Positions 2,227 through 31,007 of a stretch of DNA of 64,000 nucleotides are shown here, one piece after another. The translations under genes were made by a program, and so were the position numbers. The notes under the pieces are model-generated. The model saw nothing but the letters and a program-made list of their open reading frames with translations. It did not search any database and was not told the DNA's origin. How positions within the stretch are numbered: the first letter of the stretch is position 1; every line of letters begins with the position of its first letter. Source of the stretch: Acidobacteriota bacterium (GTDB lineage Bacteria; Acidobacteriota; UBA890; WLXD01). The stretch covers positions 448,001-512,000 of the forward strand of contig CBDBHB010000007.1 of the NCBI GenBank assembly GCA_965205505.1, in the 5' to 3' direction.

Positions 2227-3564
2227 ATGGCCAAGCATGAGATCGATCGACGCGCTTTTCTAGCAACGTCGGCAGCCACAACAGCGGGAATGCTCACCGC
2301 TGGCACGGTGAACGCGGCCCCGAGCGGCGGCTTCACGGCCCGCACGGTGGTGCCCGGAAGCACGATCGGAGCCCATCCGCCACCGCCGTTCTCCAAGGCC
2401 GAGTATCAGGAGAGGCTGCGCCGCGTGCGCGGACGGATGGCGCAGGACAACATCGACATGTTGTTCGTCACCATGCCCGAAGACATGTGCTACCTGCACG
2501 GTCTGGAGCTGAGCTGGTATCAGCAGAACTGTCCCGAGAGCTGGGCCCCGAGCTCGATCACCGCCGTGCACGTCGACCACGAAGACCTCATCCACTTCGA
2601 CAGCCACGACGAGCTCATGGCGGCGACCTCCGTCGCCACCGATATCCGGCGTCCCCGACCCGGTGGTGAGCGCGCCTGCGAGGGGCACGCCATGGAGCTG
2701 GAGGCGTCCGGGTGGCTCAACGGCACGGTGGGGCTGCAGTACAACAGCTATCGTCCGCGGCCCCTCCACATGAAGCAGATCGAGGCCGTGTTCCGCGATC
2801 GTGGTTGCGAGCTCATCGACGCTTCCGGCGTCATGATCGATGTCAAGGTGCACAAGTCGCCGGCCGAGATCGAGGTGGTCGAGGAGGCGGGCCGCATCGC
2901 CGACGTCGGCCTGCAGGCAGCCAGGGACAACGTCCAGCCCGGCATGACGGAGCTGGAGCTCTACGGCGAGATCGTGCGCGCCATGACCCGTGCCGGCGGT
3001 GGGATGTCGGGCCTGCTGTGCGCCGTCAAGGCAGGGGGCAACCATTTCATCCACGGCATTGCATCGGAGCGCGTGATCCAGGAGGTCGATCACGTCGTCG
3101 TCGATGTCTGCGGGGTCAAGAATCGCTACCACTGCAACACCTGCCGGGCCTTTTTCGTCGGTGAGCCGCCCAAGGAGATGGTGGATCTGTACGCGATGAA
3201 CGGCCGGGCCATGGACGTTGTTCACGCTACCGGCAAGCCCGGCCTACCGCTCAACGAGCTGACCCGGACCTTGCGAGAGTTCTACAAGGAAACCGGTGCC
3301 TGGCAGCTGGCCCAGCAGGGCAAGATAGATGGCTGGCTCGGTGGCTATGAGCTGGGGATCAGCTTTCCGCCGGATTGGTGCGGTTGGTGGACCTTCACCG
3401 TCGGCGAGGAGGATCGCTCGGATTGGGTCATGCAAGAGCGCCAGGTGAGCAACTACGAGAGCTTCGCGACCGGAAGCACGGGACTGATCGATACCTTCAT
3501 CTACGAGAAGGGTGGATGCCGCTCGCTCACGACGATGCCGCCGGAGCTGATCGTGGTCGCCTGA
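2227..3564 (+). CDS. M24 (Xaa-Pro peptidase/creatinase-like) family protein with Tat signal
   Basis: GGAGG RBS before the ATG at 2227; DRRAFL twin-arginine motif; FSKAEYQERLRRVR creatinase N-domain; HKSPAEIE and PGMTELEL pita-bread motifs. Confidence 0.85.
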   Translation: MAKHEIDRRAFLATSAATTAGMLTAGTVNAAPSGGFTARTVVPGSTIGAHPPPPFSKAEYQERLRRVRGRMAQDNIDMLFVTMPEDMCYLHGLELSWYQQNCPESWAPSSITAVHVDHEDLIHFDSHDELMAATSVATDIRRPRPGGERACEGHAMELEASGWLNGTVGLQYNSYRPRPLHMKQIEAVFRDRGCELIDASGVMIDVKVHKSPAEIEVVEEAGRIADVGLQAARDNVQPGMTELELYGEIVRAMTRAGGGMSGLLCAVKAGGNHFIHGIASERVIQEVDHVVVDVCGVKNRYHCNTCRAFFVGEPPKEMVDLYAMNGRAMDVVHATGKPGLPLNELTRTLREFYKETGAWQLAQQGKIDGWLGGYELGISFPPDWCGWWTFTVGEEDRSDWVMQERQVSNYESFATGSTGLIDTFIYEKGGCRSLTTMPPELIVVA

Positions 3565-20990: not shown

Positions 20991-21662
20991 TCAGGTCCGC
21001 GGATGCTTCCGGACCGCGAGTTCGGCGGTACGCAGGACCTGGGCGCATCGGCTTTGGGACCACAGCAGGACTCTCCCCGCAGAAACGCCCGCGAGGGCTG
21101 GACCGGGTTTCTGGTCGCACACATACCGCAACGGATCGAGGAAGCCTATTACGGCACCGACGTTCTTCCACCCGGCCATTGTGGCCCGTACGTGGTCGAG
21201 CGACTCGGGGTATTCAACGTCGCAGACGTGGATGGCTATCGACGGGATCAACCCAGGGAGAATTTCTTGGACCACCTGCTCGATACCACGCAGGGACGGA
21301 ATGGCGTCGCCGTAGTGACCAGGATCGACGTCGTTCGCCCAGAGATGCAATTTCGCCTGCCGCAAAGTCGCTAGCAAGCTCACGATTAGAGCCCCGTTCG
21401 CCCCGCAGTCGGGCCGATGCCTCAGACAGCGTCTGATGACATCGACGAAGTCGCCTCCTCCGCTGCTGTCAGCAATCTGCTGGAGCGCGCCCGACGAGAT
21501 CCCGACAGACTGCGGATGGGGGCGCCACTCCGAAAGAGCGGGCATCGCGAAAGCCGTTGCGAAACCGAGACTCTCGCCGGGCTCAATCCGATCCAGAAGC
21601 AGCGCAGCCGTCTCAGCTACAACCAGGTTTTCGAGAAGAGTACCGACGTTCTGAATCGGCAT
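20991..21662 (-). CDS. Hypothetical protein, possibly a Rossmann/MTase-like fragment
   Basis: 223-aa ORF; LHLWANDVD and VIGFLDP segments; ends uncertain. Confidence 0.35.
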   Translation of the reverse strand: MPIQNVGTLLENLVVAETAALLLDRIEPGESLGFATAFAMPALSEWRPHPQSVGISSGALQQIADSSGGGDFVDVIRRCLRHRPDCGANGALIVSLLATLRQAKLHLWANDVDPGHYGDAIPSLRGIEQVVQEILPGLIPSIAIHVCDVEYPESLDHVRATMAGWKNVGAVIGFLDPLRYVCDQKPGPALAGVSAGRVLLWSQSRCAQVLRTAELAVRKHPRT

Positions 21663-21745
21663 GCCCGTTGGTCCGGCTAGCAGTATGGGGTCTCAGCTGC
21701 GGGCCGCGCGGCGGACCGTCCGCTGCGAGCGCTGGCTAGGCGACG

Positions 21746-22509
21746 TCACGCCAAGTATCCAGGCGTCCCATAAGTGAACCGCTCTCTCCATATGAGCTCC
21801 AGTACGTCGTTGGTGAAACGACGCGTGGCCACGTTACAGAAAGCGTCGACGATCGCAGAGCTGCCAGACCCGCGGCCCTCGATCACGTCCATCCAGAACG
21901 CGGGCTTGTAGCGGACGAGATTCCCGAGGATGTAAAGGCCGGCATAGAGGACAGCGGTTGAGGATACGATTCCGCATTCATGCCGTTCGACCAAGAAATA
22001 CCGGCTGTCGATCGCGTGCCGCGTGATCGACAGGTTCGGCGGCAGGTCAGGCCCAGGCTCCGAGCGAAGAAACGCCGTTTGTGAGCCATCGGCGGTTTCT
22101 TCAAAGCCGTCGGCAAGGGCAGGCAAGTGCTCGGCTATCTCCGCGTGCGGAAGTCCGCAGGCCGTGATGATCAGCAGGTGGCCCGCGTCCGTTGGCCGCG
22201 GCTCGTGGCGCAGCTTTATCATGGGTGGCTTCGCGCCATAGTGACGATAGTGCAACGGCATCAGGTCGGGTATTCGGCCGACCATTTCTTGAAATCGAAC
22301 AGCTACGTTCTCCTCAAGCGGGCCGTCGCCCACAACGGAGCAGAGGCCGGGGAACACTCCCGCCGCCTTGGTGACACCGAACTCGGCTTCGACTGACCAA
22401 TCTCCGGGAGACTGCACGTAGTCTGTCAGCCGTTCGCTGTTCGGTCGCGTGGCGAGCCCGTGGTATCTGATTTCGTGAAGTTCAGCGCCTTCCGACGAGG
22501 CGAGGATCG
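21746..22509 (-). pseudogene. YaaC-family protein, 5'-truncated
   Basis: YHGL and AVLYAGLYILGNLVRYKPAFW; the 5' end is replaced by the DUF2924 repeat. Confidence 0.6.
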
Positions 22510-22654
22510 CGCGGGGCCGATGAGATGGCCGCCCTTCAGGAGCGGATCGCGGCGCTTGGGGCGATACAGCTGCCCACGCTGCGTGATGAATGGTGGCGTC
22601 TTTACCAGACACCCCCGCCCCGGCGGCTCGGCCGCGATCTGCTGATCCGGGGCA
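22510..22654 (+). repeat. 145-bp direct repeat copy 1 (5' end of DUF2924 gene; copy 2 at 28807-28951)
   Basis: Identical to 28807-28951 apart from two substitutions that I could see. Confidence 0.92.
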
Positions 22655-23010
22655 CGGTCACCGTCGCCGACCTGATGGACCGCTTCCTCGATGACTACCT
22701 CCAGAACAAGAAACGGCCGCCGAAGGCGTCGACCTTACGGAGCTACGACAGCCTGATCCGCTGCCATGTTGTGCCTACTCTGGGGAAGAAGCGCGTGGCC
22801 GAGATAGCCATGGCGGACCTGGAGCGAATGCACCGGCGAATGCGGCGACTCCGTACGTGGCGAACCGCACCCTGACCGTCCTACAGCACGCCTTCGACCT
22901 GGCCGAGGGCGCCAGCCCTGGCGCCTGCGCTGCCATTCGCGTCGCCTTCTGGACGGGCTGGCGGATCGGCGAGGTGCTCGCCCTCGAATCGGACAACCTC
23001 GATCTCGATT
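22655..23010 (+). pseudogene. Tyrosine integrase remnant (deleted and frameshifted)
   Basis: TVADLMDRFLDDY...STLRSYDSLIRCHVVPTLG; ANRTLTVLQHAFDLA; VAFWTGWRIGEVLAL. Confidence 0.7.
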
Positions 23011-23102
23011 CGAGGCTCGAGGGGTCGCCGACGGGCATCGACGAGCGACGACGGACAACTCTAGGATTATCATTGGCTAGGAAGAGAACCGGAGCTGCAA
23101 CC

Positions 23103-25119
23103 ATGCCGGACACGATCGACGGCTACGAAATCCAAGGCTCACTTGGCTCAGGCGCTTTCGGGCGGACCTATCGGGTGACGAAGGGCGGCAACGTCTACGC
23201 GATGAAGGTGCTCAAGCCCGAGGCGATACGCACCGAAGTCGACCGCGAGCGTTTCCAGCGCGAGTGCCGGGCCCTGCAGAAGATCGAGAGCGAGTACGTC
23301 GTCGCGTACTATGACCATGGAGTCTTTGACGACGACGGCCGCGAAACCTACTACATCGTCATGAGCTTCGTCGAGGGCACCGACTTCGACCGGCTGCTGC
23401 GCCGCGAGAGCCCTCCCCGTCCCGAGGCGGAGATCCGCGCCGTGCTGGGACAGGTACTCGCTGGTCTGGCCGACATCCACGAGTGCAACATCGTCCACCG
23501 AGACCTCAAGCCGGCAAACATATTCGTCGCGAAGGACGGCGCGGTGAAGATCGGCGACTTCGGCCTCGTGAAGATGATCGACTACACGACGTTGACGATG
23601 ACGGGCGAGACCCTTGGCACGCCACTGTACATGTCGCCCGAGGAGATGCTCGACCGAGAGATCGACCACCGCAGTGATCTGTTCTCATTCGGCGTGCTGC
23701 TGTACCAGCTTCTGACTGGCCACTTCCCGTTTCCTGCGGGGAACATCATGCAGCTGATGCATGCTGTCACGCAGTATCCGCCGGAACGGCCGACGCTCCA
23801 CAACCCGGATTTGTCTAACCGCCTGGAGAACTTGGTACTGCGGCTTCTCGAGAAGGAGCCCTTCCTCCGGCCGTCCAACGCGGCGGAGGTGGCGGAGTTG
23901 CTGGAGCGTACGCCCTTCTACCGGGCGGATGAAGCTCCGGCACCGGAGGCCGAGGCGTGGAGCTTCGGCAAGCGGATGTGCTTCATCCGACTGCTGCACA
24001 ACGAGAAGAGCGTGACCGAACGGTTCCTGTCGGACCACACAATCGACGGGGTGGTCTTCCAGGCCAACTACATCCCACGGTACCGAGGGCAGCTGGAGGT
24101 GCTGCGTGACCACGGCGTGCCGTATCTCTTCGATCCGAGCACGAACCGCCTGACGTACTCGAAATTCAGCGAGACGAAGGGCCTGCGGGAGCTGCCGTAC
24201 GTGCTGGACAAGATGAGTAGGCTGACGCCGGCGAAGCTGCGCTCGATCGCCGACATCCGCAGGTATGTCAGGGAGGTGCTGAACTGGCAGATCCAGCATC
24301 GATGCAGGTACCTGGTCGCTCCGTTTCACTTCAGCAAGACGCTGACCTCGGAGTGGATGGAGATCGACCTGAAACTGATCTCGGAGGCTCGTGAGTACCT
24401 ATCGTCGAAGGGGCGCGAGGAGCGGCTGTTCGCGGCGGTCTGCACGAACCTCGAGGACCTTACGGACAAGGAGAACCGACGGCACTTGGTCAATCGGTAC
24501 TCGAAACATCCGGTAGACGGTTATCTGTTCTACATCGACCTCGTGCAGGAGCAGACGAGCGTGCCGGGTCAGCTGTACGGGTACCTGAACATGCTCGTGG
24601 ACTTCAGAGCGCTGGGAAGGCCCCTGATCGCCTGCCGGGTGGGCAACCTAGGCCTCGGCGTGGTGTCGCTCGGCATCGACGCCTTCACTACTGGAATCGC
24701 ATCGCTGAGCTTCTTTTCGGAGAAGACGCTGCTGGAAGATCGTCCGACCGGGTACACGATGCAGCTCAAGTACTACCTGCCGGAGTTGCTGTCGAACGTC
24801 CAGATCGGCGCCGCGATCGATGTGCTGAGCTCAGGTCAGTACGCGAGGCTCGTCTGTGGCTGTCCATACTGCGGTGGCCGTGTGGACGAGGTGACCTTGA
24901 GCAGGGCCGCCAAGCCGCATTTCCTCTACCGCCGGCGTCCAGGAGATGGAGGCCATCAACGCCACGAACGACGGCGCGCGGCTCGGCGATTTCCTAGACA
25001 AGACAGAGCAGGCGCTGAAGTTGACGACCGAGATCCGGCACAAGCTGGGTGTCGCCATCCCCAACCAGCATTTCAAGACCTGGCTCGAGGTCTTTCCCGA
25101 AGTGGCCAAGCGGCTCTAG
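23103..25119 (+). CDS. Hanks Ser/Thr kinase fused to a C-terminal TIM-barrel-like (TGT/beta-family-like) domain with CxCxxC...H; apparent +1 frameshift near 24935
   Basis: GSGAFG, YAMK, HRDLKPAN, DFG and GTPLYMSPE; C-terminal YLFDPST, LVAPFH and CGCPYC..HFLY; tail VQEMEAIN...WLEVFPEVAKRL* in the shifted frame. Confidence 0.8.
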
Positions 25120-25784
25120 CAGCGTAAGCCAGTGGCGTGGATCTGCTGCCAGATTCGCTCGTTGGTCATTAGGAACATCTCTTCGCTGCGCGGCTTGCGG
25201 CGGCGCGGGTGGAACACGATCTCGGCCGCGTCGTGGGAGACGGTCATCAGTCCGACGTTGTGCTTGCGGAGGATCTCGTCGCGCACGCGAGCTCGATGCC
25301 GCGCGGCGATGGCCAAGTAAGTCTTGTGGGCGAAGTGCTGGTAGCGCTTGGCCTGGCACAGTCCCTCGAACCAGTTCTTCATCTTGGCCTCAACGGCCCA
25401 GATCTCCTCGGCCACGGGTCTGTACTCGCCGAGGAGCTGGAAGGTGTCGTCGTCGGTCCTCTCGACGAAGTTCTCGGCGAGTAAGAAGCGCAGCACGTCG
25501 TAGCGGAGGCGCCTGGCCGAGATACCGGTGTGTTCGAGAAGCCGGTCGAAGGTCGCCCCCTCGAACTTCCGTAGCGCGTGGACGACCTGGACCTCGGCCC
25601 GGCGGGGCAGGGTCGTGGTCTGACGCTGGCGGAGCCGCTGGCGGACTCCATCGTCGCAAGGCCGGGCGGCAACGACATCGGCCACGCCGTAGCCGACGCC
25701 AAGCTCCTCGACCACGATGCTGTCTGCCCACAGCCCAGCTAGACAGGCCTTGATCGGCTCGATCATCTCGCTTTCGTAGCGCAC
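25116..25784 (-). CDS. PD-(D/E)XK nuclease with inserted wHTH (sce7726/MmcB-like)
   Basis: VEELGVGYGVADVV...WAVEAKMKNW..GLCQAKRYQHFAHKTY...VGLMTV; HTH-like ATFDRLLEHTGISARRLR; GTG start inferred. Confidence 0.7.
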   Translation of the reverse strand: MRYESEMIEPIKACLAGLWADSIVVEELGVGYGVADVVAARPCDDGVRQRLRQRQTTTLPRRAEVQVVHALRKFEGATFDRLLEHTGISARRLRYDVLRFLLAENFVERTDDDTFQLLGEYRPVAEEIWAVEAKMKNWFEGLCQAKRYQHFAHKTYLAIAARHRARVRDEILRKHNVGLMTVSHDAAEIVFHPRRRKPRSEEMFLMTNERIWQQIHATGLRC

Positions 25785-28259: not shown

Positions 28260-28598
28260 TGCTTGGCATTTCGCCCGATCGCCCTCGCGAGCTCTCCGAT
28301 CTTCGCCCGCAGCTCCTTGATCTCCGCCTCCCGAGAGACCTCATCCCGCTCTTGCTTGCCCGAGAAGCCGGGCCAGTACCTTCTGCCGAGCCTTCTTCTT
28401 CCAGTTGGCGATCAGGTTCGGATGCACATCGTAGCGGGCTGCCAGCTCCGCCATCGTCGCTTCCTCCCGAAGCGCCTCCAAAGCGACCTTCGCCTTCAGC
28501 TCAGCAGGATAACTTCGTCTCTTCCGTGGCATTCCAGACTCCTTCTCCTTGGTCTGGATTCCACCTTAGCAAGCTGTCCGAATTTCGGGGTCCACCTC
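28260..28598 (-). pseudogene. IS3-family left end plus frameshifted OrfA fragment
   Basis: IR-like GAGGTGGACCCCGAAATTCGGACA; MPRKRRSYPAELKAKVALEAL...HPNLIANWKK; EIKELRAKIGEL in the next frame. Confidence 0.75.
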
Positions 28599-28773
28599 TG
28601 TATAGAGCGACAGCCGCAACGTAGAGCAGAGCGCAAGTACCGCCCGCCGCGGCGGCCAGCTCGTGGCGTACCGATGAGACTCCGGTCGCCAAGACCACGG
28701 CCTTGGACTGGACTTGTGCCGGCAAACGAGCGTCACTGTGGGTGCCTTCGGCCGACGGTTCCGGACCGAACAT

Positions 28774-29271
28774 ATGTGCACGAAAACCCAACCCGGCATG
28801 GCCCCACGCGGGGCCGATGAGATGGCCGCCCTTCAGGAGCGGATCGCGGCGCTTGGGGCGATACAGCTGCCCACGCTGCGTGATGAATGGTGGCGTCTTT
28901 ACCAGACACTCCCGCCCCGGCGGCTCAGCCGCGATCTGCTGATCCGGGGCATCGCCTACAAGCTGCAGGAAAACGCCCACGGTGGCTTGAGCAAGGCCAC
29001 CCAGCGCCGCCTTCGGACACTGGCCAAGACCTTCGCCCAGACCGGCCGTGTGGCCCCCGGGAGGGGTCCGCGGCTGCGCCCTGGCGCGCGGCTGGTGCGG
29101 CAGTGGCGCGGTCGAACCTACGTGGTCACCGTCACCGAAACTGGCTTCGAGTACACCGGTAAGCTGTATCGCTCCTTGAGCAGTATCGCCCGGCGTATCA
29201 CCGGCGCCCATTGGTCCGGCCCCCGCTTCTTCGGCGTTCAGGGAGCGCCGCGCGCCAAGGGCTCGCCTTGA
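28774..29271 (+). CDS. DUF2924 domain protein
   Basis: LRDEWWRLY, IAYKLQE, PGARLVRQWRG and SLSSIARRITGAHWSGPRFFG. Confidence 0.88.
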   Translation: MCTKTQPGMAPRGADEMAALQERIAALGAIQLPTLRDEWWRLYQTLPPRRLSRDLLIRGIAYKLQENAHGGLSKATQRRLRTLAKTFAQTGRVAPGRGPRLRPGARLVRQWRGRTYVVTVTETGFEYTGKLYRSLSSIARRITGAHWSGPRFFGVQGAPRAKGSP

Positions 29272-31007
29272 ACGAGGCGACTGCTCCTGCCTGCCGCAAC
29301 GGCAACTGGCGCGTGCGCTGCGGTATCTACACCCGCAAGTCCCACGAGCATGGGCTGGATCAAGCCTTCAACTCCCTGCAGGCGCAGCGTGAAGCTTGTG
29401 AGGCCTATATCGCGAGCCAGAAGCACGAAGGCTGGATGGCTCTACCCAATCACTATGACGATGGCGGTGTATCCGGCGCCACGATGAATCGGCCAGGGTT
29501 GCAGCGTCTGCTGGCCGATATTCAAGACGGGCGGATCGACGTCATCGTGGTGTACAAGGTGGACCGGCTGACCCGGGCGTTATCGGACTTCGCCCACATC
29601 GTGGAGGTGTTGGACCGGTACGAGGTGTCGTTCGTGTCGGTAACCCAGCAGTTCAACACCACCAGCTCGATGGGCCGGCTGACGCTCAACGTGCTGCTGT
29701 CATTCGCGCAGTTCGAGCGCGAGGTCACCGGTGAGCGCATTCGCGACAAGATCGCCGCCTCCAAGAAAAGAGGTCTGTGGATGGGAGGCAACCCGCCCCT
29801 GGGCTACGACGTCCAGGACCGGAAGCTGATTGTCAACGAGCCGGAGGCCGGAACCGTCCGCTATATCTTCCGCCTGTACCGTCAGCTCCGATCGGTGCGG
29901 GAGCTACGTGAGCGGCTCGGGGCCGAGGGCGTCACTAGCAAGCGCCGGGTGCTGCGCGACGGCCGCGTCACCGGTGGCAAGCCCATCAACCGGGGGGCGC
30001 TCTACTACCTGCTGCGCAACCGCATCTACCGGGGACAGATCGTCCACAAGGACAAGGCCTATCCCGGCGAACATGAAGCCATCATCGATCGGGAGCTGTG
30101 GGATGCGGTGCAGGCGACCCTGACCGACAACACCCGGGGCACCCGCCGCCGGGGCTCCCGGCGGCCCAGCCTGCTTACGGGCCTGCTGGTGGACGAGCAG
30201 GGCGAAGGCCTCACGCCCACCCATGCGGTTAAGAAGAACCGGCGCTACCGCTATTACGTCTCCCGCCACCTGATCATCGAGGGCAAGCAAGCCGACCGCA
30301 AGGGGTGGCGCATCCCAGCGGCGGATCTGGAGGGTCTCGTCGTGGCCCGTCTGCGGGAATGGCTCGGTGATCCGGCAGCGGTGAGCGCTGTGGTGCAAGG
30401 CGACCGCCCCGATGCAGCAGCCCTAGCAGCTTTGATCGCCAGCGCCAAGAAGCTCGCCGAACGGTGGCCGAGCCTGAAACAGGATCAAGCCAGGGCGTAT
30501 CTCAAGAGCCTCCTGCGGCGCGTCATCATCCGGTCCGGCAGCATCCAGATCCAGATCGCCGCGGACCGGGTCACCGAGGCGGTGTGCTCGGAGCCCGATG
30601 GCGGGCCGGTGCTGCCATCAACCCTCACCCACGACACCATCACCCTGGAGATCCCCGCCGTGCTCCAGCGCGCCGGCATGGCGGTGAGGCTGATCGTCCC
30701 CGGCGCCGGGGACGAGCCCCGGCCGGACCCGAGCCTGATGCGGCTGCTCGTGCGCGCCTTCGGGATCCGTGATCGACTGGACCGCAACCCCGATCTCACG
30801 ATCCAAAGGATCGCCGAGGCCGAGGGTGTGGTGGCCTCCTACGCCACCCGACTGCTGCGGTTGAGCTTCCTGGCGCCGGACATCGTCGCGGCCATCCTCG
30901 AAGGCCGCCCGCCGCTGGAGTTAACCGCCAACAAGCTCATGCGCGACACGCGACTGCCTCTGGAATGGACCGCGCAGCGGCAGCGTCTAGGGTTTCCGAC
31001 CGCTTAG
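29268..31007 (+). CDS. Large serine recombinase
   Basis: CGIYTRKS, NSLQAQREAC, VYKVDRLTR and FAQFERE; C-terminal LSFLAPDIVAAILEG; TTG start overlaps the DUF2924 stop. Confidence 0.92.
   Translation: MNEATAPACRNGNWRVRCGIYTRKSHEHGLDQAFNSLQAQREACEAYIASQKHEGWMALPNHYDDGGVSGATMNRPGLQRLLADIQDGRIDVIVVYKVDRLTRALSDFAHIVEVLDRYEVSFVSVTQQFNTTSSMGRLTLNVLLSFAQFEREVTGERIRDKIAASKKRGLWMGGNPPLGYDVQDRKLIVNEPEAGTVRYIFRLYRQLRSVRELRERLGAEGVTSKRRVLRDGRVTGGKPINRGALYYLLRNRIYRGQIVHKDKAYPGEHEAIIDRELWDAVQATLTDNTRGTRRRGSRRPSLLTGLLVDEQGEGLTPTHAVKKNRRYRYYVSRHLIIEGKQADRKGWRIPAADLEGLVVARLREWLGDPAAVSAVVQGDRPDAAALAALIASAKKLAERWPSLKQDQARAYLKSLLRRVIIRSGSIQIQIAADRVTEAVCSEPDGGPVLPSTLTHDTITLEIPAVLQRAGMAVRLIVPGAGDEPRPDPSLMRLLVRAFGIRDRLDRNPDLTIQRIAEAEGVVASYATRLLRLSFLAPDIVAAILEGRPPLELTANKLMRDTRLPLEWTAQRQRLGFPTA

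Follow-up and report, generated by a model that had tools for sequence, protein, structure and literature searches.

Among described systems, the TIM-B systems come closest to the locus reported here. According to the TIM-B section of a preprint of October 2026 (bioRxiv 10.64898/2026.10.19.760177), the Pfam family Beta_protein, that of the phage P4 protein B, is unified with the deazaguanine-transglycosylase barrels; the effectors described there are HigB, restriction endonuclease (REase), Pol-beta, GNAT, sirtuin, RES, caspase and 2TM proteins, the P4-type systems have a convergent, overlapping REase gene, and it is proposed that the barrel holds the effector off until infection. Our locus lies in a stretch of 64,000 nucleotides (nt), hereafter the window, of the Acidobacteriota bacterium assembly GCA_965205505.1 (contig CBDBHB010000007.1, positions 448,001 to 512,000, that is C7:448001-512000 of a 5.98-Mb genome), where a gene for a Hanks-type kinase fused to a barrel domain resembling tRNA-guanine transglycosylase (TGT) (23103-25119, + strand) faces a gene for a predicted PD-(D/E)xK nuclease (25116-25784, - strand). 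As far as the preprint describes them, the TIM-B systems are the nearest published idea, and the pair follows an analogous logic. On balance, we consider it probable that the two genes form a self-sufficient conflict or defence module that spreads by horizontal transfer. In it, the barrel would be the sensor or regulator of the kinase to which it is fused, and the nuclease would serve as a DNA-targeting effector, either coupled or as a back-up; the module would probably serve anti-phage immunity or abortive infection, and possibly addiction.

The likeness to the TIM-B systems, as presented in the preprint, lies in the combination of a TIM barrel of apparent TGT fold, a variable effector and a gene of the REase fold that is convergent and overlapping on the opposite strand, as in the P4 type; this last arrangement recurs in the window, where the two stop codons overlap, and in a Priestia megaterium plasmid copy, whose annotated genes share 36 nt. 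On the other hand, the barrel studied here is not a Beta_protein (PF14350) member and has the CxCxxC...H motif; a single polypeptide contains both barrel and effector, the latter being a Hanks kinase, a type absent from the effectors of the preprint's TIM-B section; moreover, the nuclease has an internal winged-helix insert, whereas the TIM-B REases are described with terminal helical or HeH extensions, and two thirds of the loci that we collected are tandem rather than convergent. In fact, PF14350 matched neither the fusion protein nor 40 stand-alone relatives of its barrel, and nothing genome-wide at 1e-5. When the barrel was compared by hhalign with three Beta_protein sequences, which come from a survey of genomes with 4 positives out of 401, the probability was below 1%, in a test of low power that also misses the link between Tgt and Beta_protein.

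The pair can also be compared with sce7725/sce7726, a two-gene pair with a PD-(D/E)xK-type protein, to which, together with the Beta and MmcB-like families, a first reading of this DNA made without database searches (the sequence-only reading) had likened it. This comparison was upheld in part: the nuclease is weakly like sce7726, with matches to sce7726_fam below the cut-off, and its core is DUF1052-like, whereas sce7725 has neither the Cys motif nor a kinase, and the barrel shows no relation to it by profile. The sce7725 model (NF033831) did not match the barrel domain or any of the 40 stand-alone relatives, and hhalign of the barrel, with two alignments, against 27 sce7725 sequences gave a probability below 1%, having little power at such distances. 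A sce7725 locus was found in 1 of 301 genomes of the phylum, with sce7726, sce7725 and a RES-domain gene in a row (L072 461-3319, - strand); its sce7725 protein has no match to Pfam Beta_protein at E ≤ 1, and its gene order matches the layout presented in the preprint as 'TIM-B with RES toxin and REase' (bioRxiv 10.64898/2026.10.19.760177). In the literature searched, sce7725 and sce7726 are named in annotation tables only, and no description of a kinase-barrel fusion was found, although the supplements of the TIM-B preprint and of the BREX paper may list it.

The kinase-barrel fusion

The features of the pair are listed below with their positions in the window; the coordinates, motifs and frameshift given by the sequence-only reading were all correct.

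23103-24935, + strand: first frame of the kinase-barrel fusion gene, 611 codons, with an ATG start at 23103, the Hanks kinase at about 23124-23882, a linker, and the barrel domain from about 23994
24855-24923, + strand: putative Zn site CGCPYC-x15-H (His of KPHF), with C585, C587 and C590 at least 90% conserved and the His invariant in 35 fusions
24934-24935, + strand: GG in place of the single G of near-identical contigs from three other studies, a +1 insertion shifting the frame
24937-25119, + strand: end of the fusion gene after the frameshift, 60 codons and a TAG stop, for the helical tail of the barrel; its translation VQEMEAIN...EVAKRL can be aligned with the C-termini of intact homologues
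25116-25784, - strand: PD-(D/E)xK nuclease gene, 222 amino acids (aa), GTG start at 25784, assigned by motifs and model; its stop overlaps that of the fusion gene
25425-25616, - strand: winged helix-turn-helix insert of the nuclease, residues about 57-120, between motif II (D36) and motif III (E132-x-K134)

The first domain is matched by Pfam Pkinase (PF00069) over residues 8-260 with an E-value of 4.1e-54 (184.2 bits, cut-off 31.7) and displays the motifs GSGAFG (15-20), AMK (K35), HRDLKPAN (132-139), DFG (152-154) and SPE (178-180). The Gly loop, K35, E54, H132, R133, D134, N139, D152-F153-G154 and P179-E180 are invariant in an alignment of 35 fusion proteins, the most distant of which is 33% identical to the first sequence of the alignment. 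Thus, the presence of all catalytic motifs, noticed from the sequence alone, was confirmed, and the domain is predicted to be an active Hanks-type Ser/Thr kinase.

A Hanks-type kinase is the enzymatic core also of Stk2, PD-T4-6, Mad6 of MADS and PglW of BREX, whereas model matches of the fusion protein to these systems are confined to the kinase domain, and none of them is known to have a TGT-like barrel or a nuclease of this kind. In PADLOC-DB 2.0.0 (2023), the models mad6 (1.7e-71) and PD-T4-6 (3.6e-68) match only residues 3-277, the former with positions 48-312 of its 659, and in NCBIfam the generic PknB model scores better than MADS6 on the same stretch (219 versus 157 bits). The fusion was therefore recognised only in its kinase part, in agreement with the view that it belongs to no named system.

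The second domain, of about 375 aa, has CGCPYC at residues 585-590 (24855-24872) and KPHF at 604-607, with 15 residues between the last Cys and the His. The domain had been described as ending in this motif, which needs correction, since about 65 mostly helical residues follow it, encoded within the window in the other frame. No model in Pfam, NCBIfam or PADLOC matched the domain, and its profile had no match at E ≤ 10 among the sequences of the PDB. To obtain a model we used the intact domain of locus L006, 86% identical to that of the window; AlphaFold2 gave alternating strands and helices with a predicted local distance difference test (pLDDT) of 85.3 and a predicted template-modelling score (pTM) of 0.85. 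Out of 350,542 PDB chains, the three best Foldseek matches of this model are all TGTs, namely the human enzyme (7nq4_A, E 5.1e-5, TMq 0.52) and the archaeosine TGTs 1j2b_A (E 1.0e-3) and 1iq8_A (E 1.4e-3), followed by generic TIM barrels at E ≥ 3.1e-3. As in TGT and DpdA (PF01702), the CxCxxC motif and a conserved His come after the last strands of the barrel, at a different spacing: the His is 15 residues after the last Cys here, while conserved His residues are found 9 and 25 residues after it in 29 Tgt sequences.

Comparisons at the sequence level were less favourable. PF01702 had no match in the fusion protein at E ≤ 1, or in any of 40 sampled stand-alone relatives at E ≤ 0.1, and these relatives matched no relevant Pfam or NCBIfam family. 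The hhalign comparison with 29 bacterial Tgt sequences was colinear, with a probability of about 1%, which is not significant; in it, the invariant D344 (DPST) is paired with the Asp of DSGG, and the residue aligned with the TGT nucleophile Asp varies. Since fold and motif are alike and the profile comparisons are not significant, we call the domain TGT-like, as judged from the model, and not a member of PF01702. The TGT likeness proposed at the outset, and the modelling with Foldseek suggested as its check, thus held for the barrel fold and for the conserved CxCxxC...H, and failed for PF01702 and the profile alignment. The genome of the window has its own canonical tgt gene elsewhere, on contig C8.

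A profile search of 1.84 billion representatives with the barrel domain gave 988 matches at E ≤ 1e-3, each representing a cluster at 50% identity. Among the best 146 that were readable, 27 proteins are at least 600 aa long, every one of them with a kinase, and 97 are stand-alone proteins of 330-520 aa. A search of the ESM Atlas with the barrel returned unnamed clusters of about 395 aa only. Against viral models, Foldseek found nothing clear: the top match, at E 6e-4, is an unnamed protein, and a phage queuine tRNA-ribosyltransferase appears at rank 44 (E 0.47).

The fusion gene of the window has an extra G at 24934/24935 (CGCCGGCG). The frame breaks after ...AKPHFLYRR, and homology resumes in the next frame with VQEMEAIN...EVAKRL up to the TAG at 25117-25119; positions 315-374 of our hidden Markov model (HMM) of the domain match this tail with an E-value of 1.8e-15. 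With one base fewer the gene would have 671 codons, and the intact homologues, of 668-673 aa, align through the break. We compared Logan contigs of four runs (X1, X4, X6 and X8) over 24500-25400. The contig of X1, probably the source sample, is identical to the window, extra base included. X4 and X6, from other studies, each have one contig over the whole stretch with G instead of GG at 24934; X8, from a third other study, has a 391-nt contig (24920-25311) without the extra base and another that stops at 24934. All three also have G for C at 25129, which turns the Gly in the nuclease end ...HATGLRC into Ala. Contig depths are low (2.7-10), and minor variants are hidden in contigs. No RNA sample was listed as containing this sequence. 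Therefore, an intact allele exists in near-identical DNA elsewhere, and the frameshift noticed from the sequence is confirmed at contig level in the window genome as either a real +1 insertion or a sample-specific error. The idea that it is an artefact of the window assembly finds no favour, as the independent Logan contig of X1 also has the extra G, at the level of contigs rather than raw reads. Because the frameshift cuts off the last 60 residues, the window copy is probably impaired in this genome.

Departures from a single open frame were seen in three other loci: an apparent in-frame stop in L024, with two pieces of the C-terminal domain 3 nt apart (2387-3502), a frame change within the fusion gene of L045 (2941-4079), and kinase and barrel in different frames on the plasmid of Natribaculum breve (L110 3889-5984).

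The nuclease and its linkage to the fusion

The partner gene encodes the motifs ADVV (35-38), VEAK (131-134) and QAKRY (144-148), and all of 39 sequences, the most distant only 21% identical, share E4, E27, D36, E132, K134, Q144 and Y148. Its model (pLDDT 94.2) shows a restriction-endonuclease-like sheet interrupted at residues ~57-120 by a winged helix of three helices and a hairpin, for which Foldseek found matches to the winged helices of MarR, Z-alpha, AspA and cullin-WHB. The best PDB match of the whole model is 3dnx (E 7.6e-6; all other matches fall on the winged helix), which aligns with the nuclease core at a template-modelling (TM) score of 0.69 on the target and differs in having 146 residues, no winged-helix insert and 11% identity. 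In the classification given by Steczkiewicz et al. (2012, PMC3424549), 3dnx represents DUF1052/COG5321, family 92 of the PD-(D/E)XK superfamily.

By sequence the partner is matched sparsely. Its profile gave only weak helix-turn-helix (HTH) matches among PDB sequences, in Pfam it had no family at E ≤ 1 apart from weak HTH matches such as TrmB (0.016), and PADLOC-DB 2.0.0 had none at E ≤ 1. The commonest NCBIfam family is sce7726_fam (NF033832), matched by 14 of 39 members, all below the cut-off, with a best E-value of 4e-5; the window protein reaches 16.4 bits (E 0.0065) against a cut-off of 70, and hhalign with one sce7726 protein gave 1.3% probability, with the motif II stretch alone aligned. 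The likeness to sce7726 is thus a remote one, and the invariant motifs, the 3dnx match and the winged-helix matches point to a PD-(D/E)xK nuclease with a winged-helix insert, as the sequence-only reading had it.

In the window, the CTAG at 25116-25119 is common to both stops (TAG on the + strand at 25117-25119, CTA on the + strand, or TAG on the - strand, at 25116-25118), as had been read from the sequence. This overlap is present only in the frame after the frameshift and is particular to the window lineage; in the other convergent loci, the HMM envelopes of the two genes are 10-16 nt apart. The window nuclease is three residues longer than its closest homologues, ending ...HATGLRC instead of ...HATA (25125-25130).

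We then asked how constantly the two genes are found together. Pattern scans of limited reach, in which host counts are lower bounds, yielded 5 loci from species-representative genomes and 46 from metagenomes. A locus was considered assessable if it continued for at least 700 nt beyond the complete second domain, as 41 did; the remaining ten end too early. The nuclease lies within 24 nt of the fusion in 40 of the 41, with 29 tandem (co-directional) and 11 convergent pairs, and after merging at 95% identity in 31 of 32 groups (21 tandem, 10 convergent, 1 without nuclease). In the scan set, identity to the window is 74% or more for the convergent loci, which form one clade, and 38-50% for the tandem loci. 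Distant copies, about 25% identical, are carried by plasmids. On p6_CACC119 of Priestia megaterium the pair, WP_322552809.1 and WP_322552810.1, is intact and convergent, and the partner matches the nuclease HMM at 1.3e-35; on a plasmid of Kocuria rosea it is also convergent, with a partner that the plasmid table leaves unannotated and the HMM matches at 2.7e-19; on a plasmid of the archaeon Natribaculum breve, nuclease, kinase and barrel follow one another on a single strand. These are three of the four plasmid records that match the nuclease, the fourth being a weak match on an Rrf2 regulator.

The pair is not due to chance, because the fusion protein and the nuclease are represented by 65 and 68 database clusters, respectively, and stand side by side in all but one of the assessable loci; the co-occurrence suggested by the first reading is thus observed. 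Moreover, the genes stay adjacent in three different orders, and in an archaeon as well as in Bacteria, which argues strongly for a joint action of their products. A third conserved gene was not found, as each neighbour family is limited to 3 of 38 locus groups at most. Prediction of a complex of fusion and nuclease gave a score of 0.45, the best control being 0.00, with runs that agree in at least 89% of contacts and a partner pLDDT of at least 86. Among solved complexes, 58 of 80 attained this mark, as did 2 of 110 mismatched pairs; at scores of 0.60 or less, it was attained by only 7 of the 80 and by both of the passing mismatches. The prediction thus supports the pairing weakly.

In one locus (L023, 3-2788), a second kinase fusion begins about 180 nt after the first pair, placing two modules in tandem. 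A 28-nt inverted repeat at 23371/25537 of the window was considered as a regulatory element and set aside, being probably a chance occurrence (79% complementary).

Distribution and mobile context

The pair has a patchy distribution, with variable flanks, and is carried by plasmids and islands. Proteins 74-78% identical to the fusion are labelled as Eiseniibacteriota, Thermoanaerobaculia and Deltaproteobacteria metagenome-assembled genomes, and the genomes of 60 relatives (4 of the same genus, 46 of good quality) have no fusion, only the stand-alone relative. This absence, with the labels of such similar proteins, speaks for horizontal transfer. In the window, the pair is inside a 6.3-kb stretch bracketed by 145-nt direct repeats, 99% identical and 6297 nt apart, which duplicate the beginning of a DUF2924 gene; after this gene comes that of a large serine recombinase (28714-31007 in all):

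22510-22654, no strand assigned: direct repeat, left copy, 145 nt, comprising 15 nt upstream and the first 43 codons of the DUF2924 gene
22655-23100, + strand: remnants of a tyrosine integrase gene, distributed over two frames and consisting of a SAM-like domain and a small part of the catalytic domain, directly upstream of the kinase gene
28807-28951, no strand assigned: direct repeat, right copy, 145 nt, at the start of the intact DUF2924 gene, which the large serine recombinase gene follows at 29211-31007

Phage_int_SAM_3 matches the open reading frame (ORF) 22525-22875 at 3.8e-7, and an integrase-like stretch in the ORF from 22857 runs into the kinase frame; a complete integrase is absent, and the remnant has no detectable likeness to the integrases beside the pair in loci L013, L010 and L033. 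The region looks like nested or decayed mobile elements. The left repeat copy is fused in frame to the SAM-like fragment of the integrase, and the right copy begins the intact DUF2924 gene. At the end of the bracketed stretch, a 63-aa ORF (28341-28532, - strand) looks, by translation alone, like a transposase fragment, the N-terminal HTH part of an IS3-family member. Upstream of the repeat, at 20991-22612 (- strand), there are a YaaC-like protein (PF14175, 3.5e-15), whose ORF start overlaps the left copy, and, adjoining it, a 223-aa ORF of no family. On the Priestia plasmid (L108, NZ_CP140272.1 22970-33902), the pair is flanked on one side by a 'damage repair protein' gene and a YolD-like gene, and on the other by genes for a zinc-ribbon protein and a BRCT-domain protein.

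Possible function of the pair

According to the mechanism that we favour, the barrel domain would bind or transfer a nucleobase-like ligand or nucleic acid, and this event would restrain the kinase or switch it on, in the way proposed for the action of TIM-B barrels on their effectors. When an invader provides the cue, proteins of the cell, with perhaps the nuclease among them, would be phosphorylated by the kinase; the nuclease would cut DNA, and the two would act as coupled or back-up effectors. The cue, the substrates and the resulting phenotype, like the ligand, are meant here as suggestions. It is also conceivable, and we think unlikely, that the barrel is an active nucleobase transferase covalently marking the kinase, the nuclease or nucleic acid, the mark gating a kinase-plus-nuclease immunity common to Bacteria and archaea and built on a TGT-like family that has no name in any database; a model for this is the reported marking of a SMODS enzyme by a deazaguanine transferase in a different defence system.

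Several observations weigh against a defence or conflict module built around a TGT-like sensor. The likeness to TGT is moderate, with a TM score of about 0.5, a root-mean-square deviation of 7.6 Å and one match only at E ≤ 0.001; sequence profiles lend it no support, and the strict CxCxxC is absent in 40 of 125 full-length representatives of the wider barrel family. Stand-alone members of about 400 aa make up a large family (the 988 representatives given above). In 8 genomes of the genus, family and order of the window, a stand-alone relative is encoded by a syntenic core gene that has no nuclease partner and is oriented divergently to an acyl-CoA synthetase-thiolase-FadB cluster; that of the window genome itself lies on contig C5 (L064 6420-7595), and the others are L065-L071. 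The barrel family, taken as a whole, thus occurs outside conflict systems too, and, as these core genes stand beside genes of fatty-acid oxidation, the barrel need not act on nucleic acids. As regards the loci, the divergent fusion L049 has no nuclease neighbour, even by a relaxed search, and searches of 50,697 phage records and of 2.9 million contigs of viruses gave no relatives. Among 148 neighbour proteins from 37 loci we counted 3 DNA methylases, 2 ResIII, 2 integrases and 4 HTH_3 proteins, and many neighbours are housekeeping proteins such as glutamate synthase, ArgJ, DAHP synthase and ABC transporters. The neighbourhoods are thus only mildly enriched in restriction and integrase genes, with no clear defence-island signal.

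A different use of the same proteins would be a modification-restriction pair of the Dpd kind, in which the TGT-like domain exchanges or inserts a base in host DNA or tRNA as a mark of self, the winged-helix nuclease cuts unmarked DNA and the kinase is only a regulator. TGTs are indeed the best fold matches of the barrel, the nuclease is almost always present, and, according to PMC12839542, DNA is marked in Dpd by TGT homologues of the DpdA type, for which the same role has been proposed in capture systems related to BREX. However, no deazaguanine-synthesis gene, DpdB- or DpdC-like gene or other third gene is conserved beside the pair, PF01702 is without a match, and a fully conserved protein kinase has no place in the scheme. 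In addition, the position of the TGT nucleophile Asp is not conserved in the non-significant hhalign alignment. We therefore regard this explanation as quite improbable.

With even less confidence one could see an ordinary signalling pair, with the barrel as a metabolic enzyme or small-molecule sensor and the winged-helix protein mainly as a transcription regulator. The stand-alone core genes beside acyl-CoA synthetase, thiolase and FadB in the 8 genomes of the window's order would fit such a role, as would the many housekeeping flanking genes and the JGI label 'predicted transcriptional regulator' on some nuclease homologues. Against it speak the invariance of E27, D36, E132, K134, Q144 and Y148 of the nuclease in all 39 sequences, flanks that vary (no family in more than 3 of 38 locus groups), and a pair that is absent from the 60 relatives searched and carried on plasmids. 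A mobile module for DNA-damage response or repair, with a glycosylase-like barrel for damaged bases, a DUF1052/MmcB-like nuclease that processes the lesion and a signalling kinase, is equally hard to credit: the nuclease core is most like 3dnx, of the DUF1052 family, now called MmcB-like and acting in mitomycin C repair, and the Priestia pair lies beside 'damage repair protein', YolD-like and BRCT-domain genes, but this context is confined to one locus, no such genes recur among the 148 neighbours, and the patchy, cross-phylum distribution fits a conflict module better.

If the pair is indeed a defence or addiction module, it would represent a new architecture in kinase-based immunity. Transglycosylase-like barrels would then be linked to effectors and a convergent nuclease in two independent cases, which would favour the view that they regulate immune effectors in general. 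The plasmid copies in Priestia megaterium and Kocuria rosea, both cultivable, make the hypothesis directly testable, and the locus points to a large unnamed TGT-like family, of 988 clusters at 50% identity.

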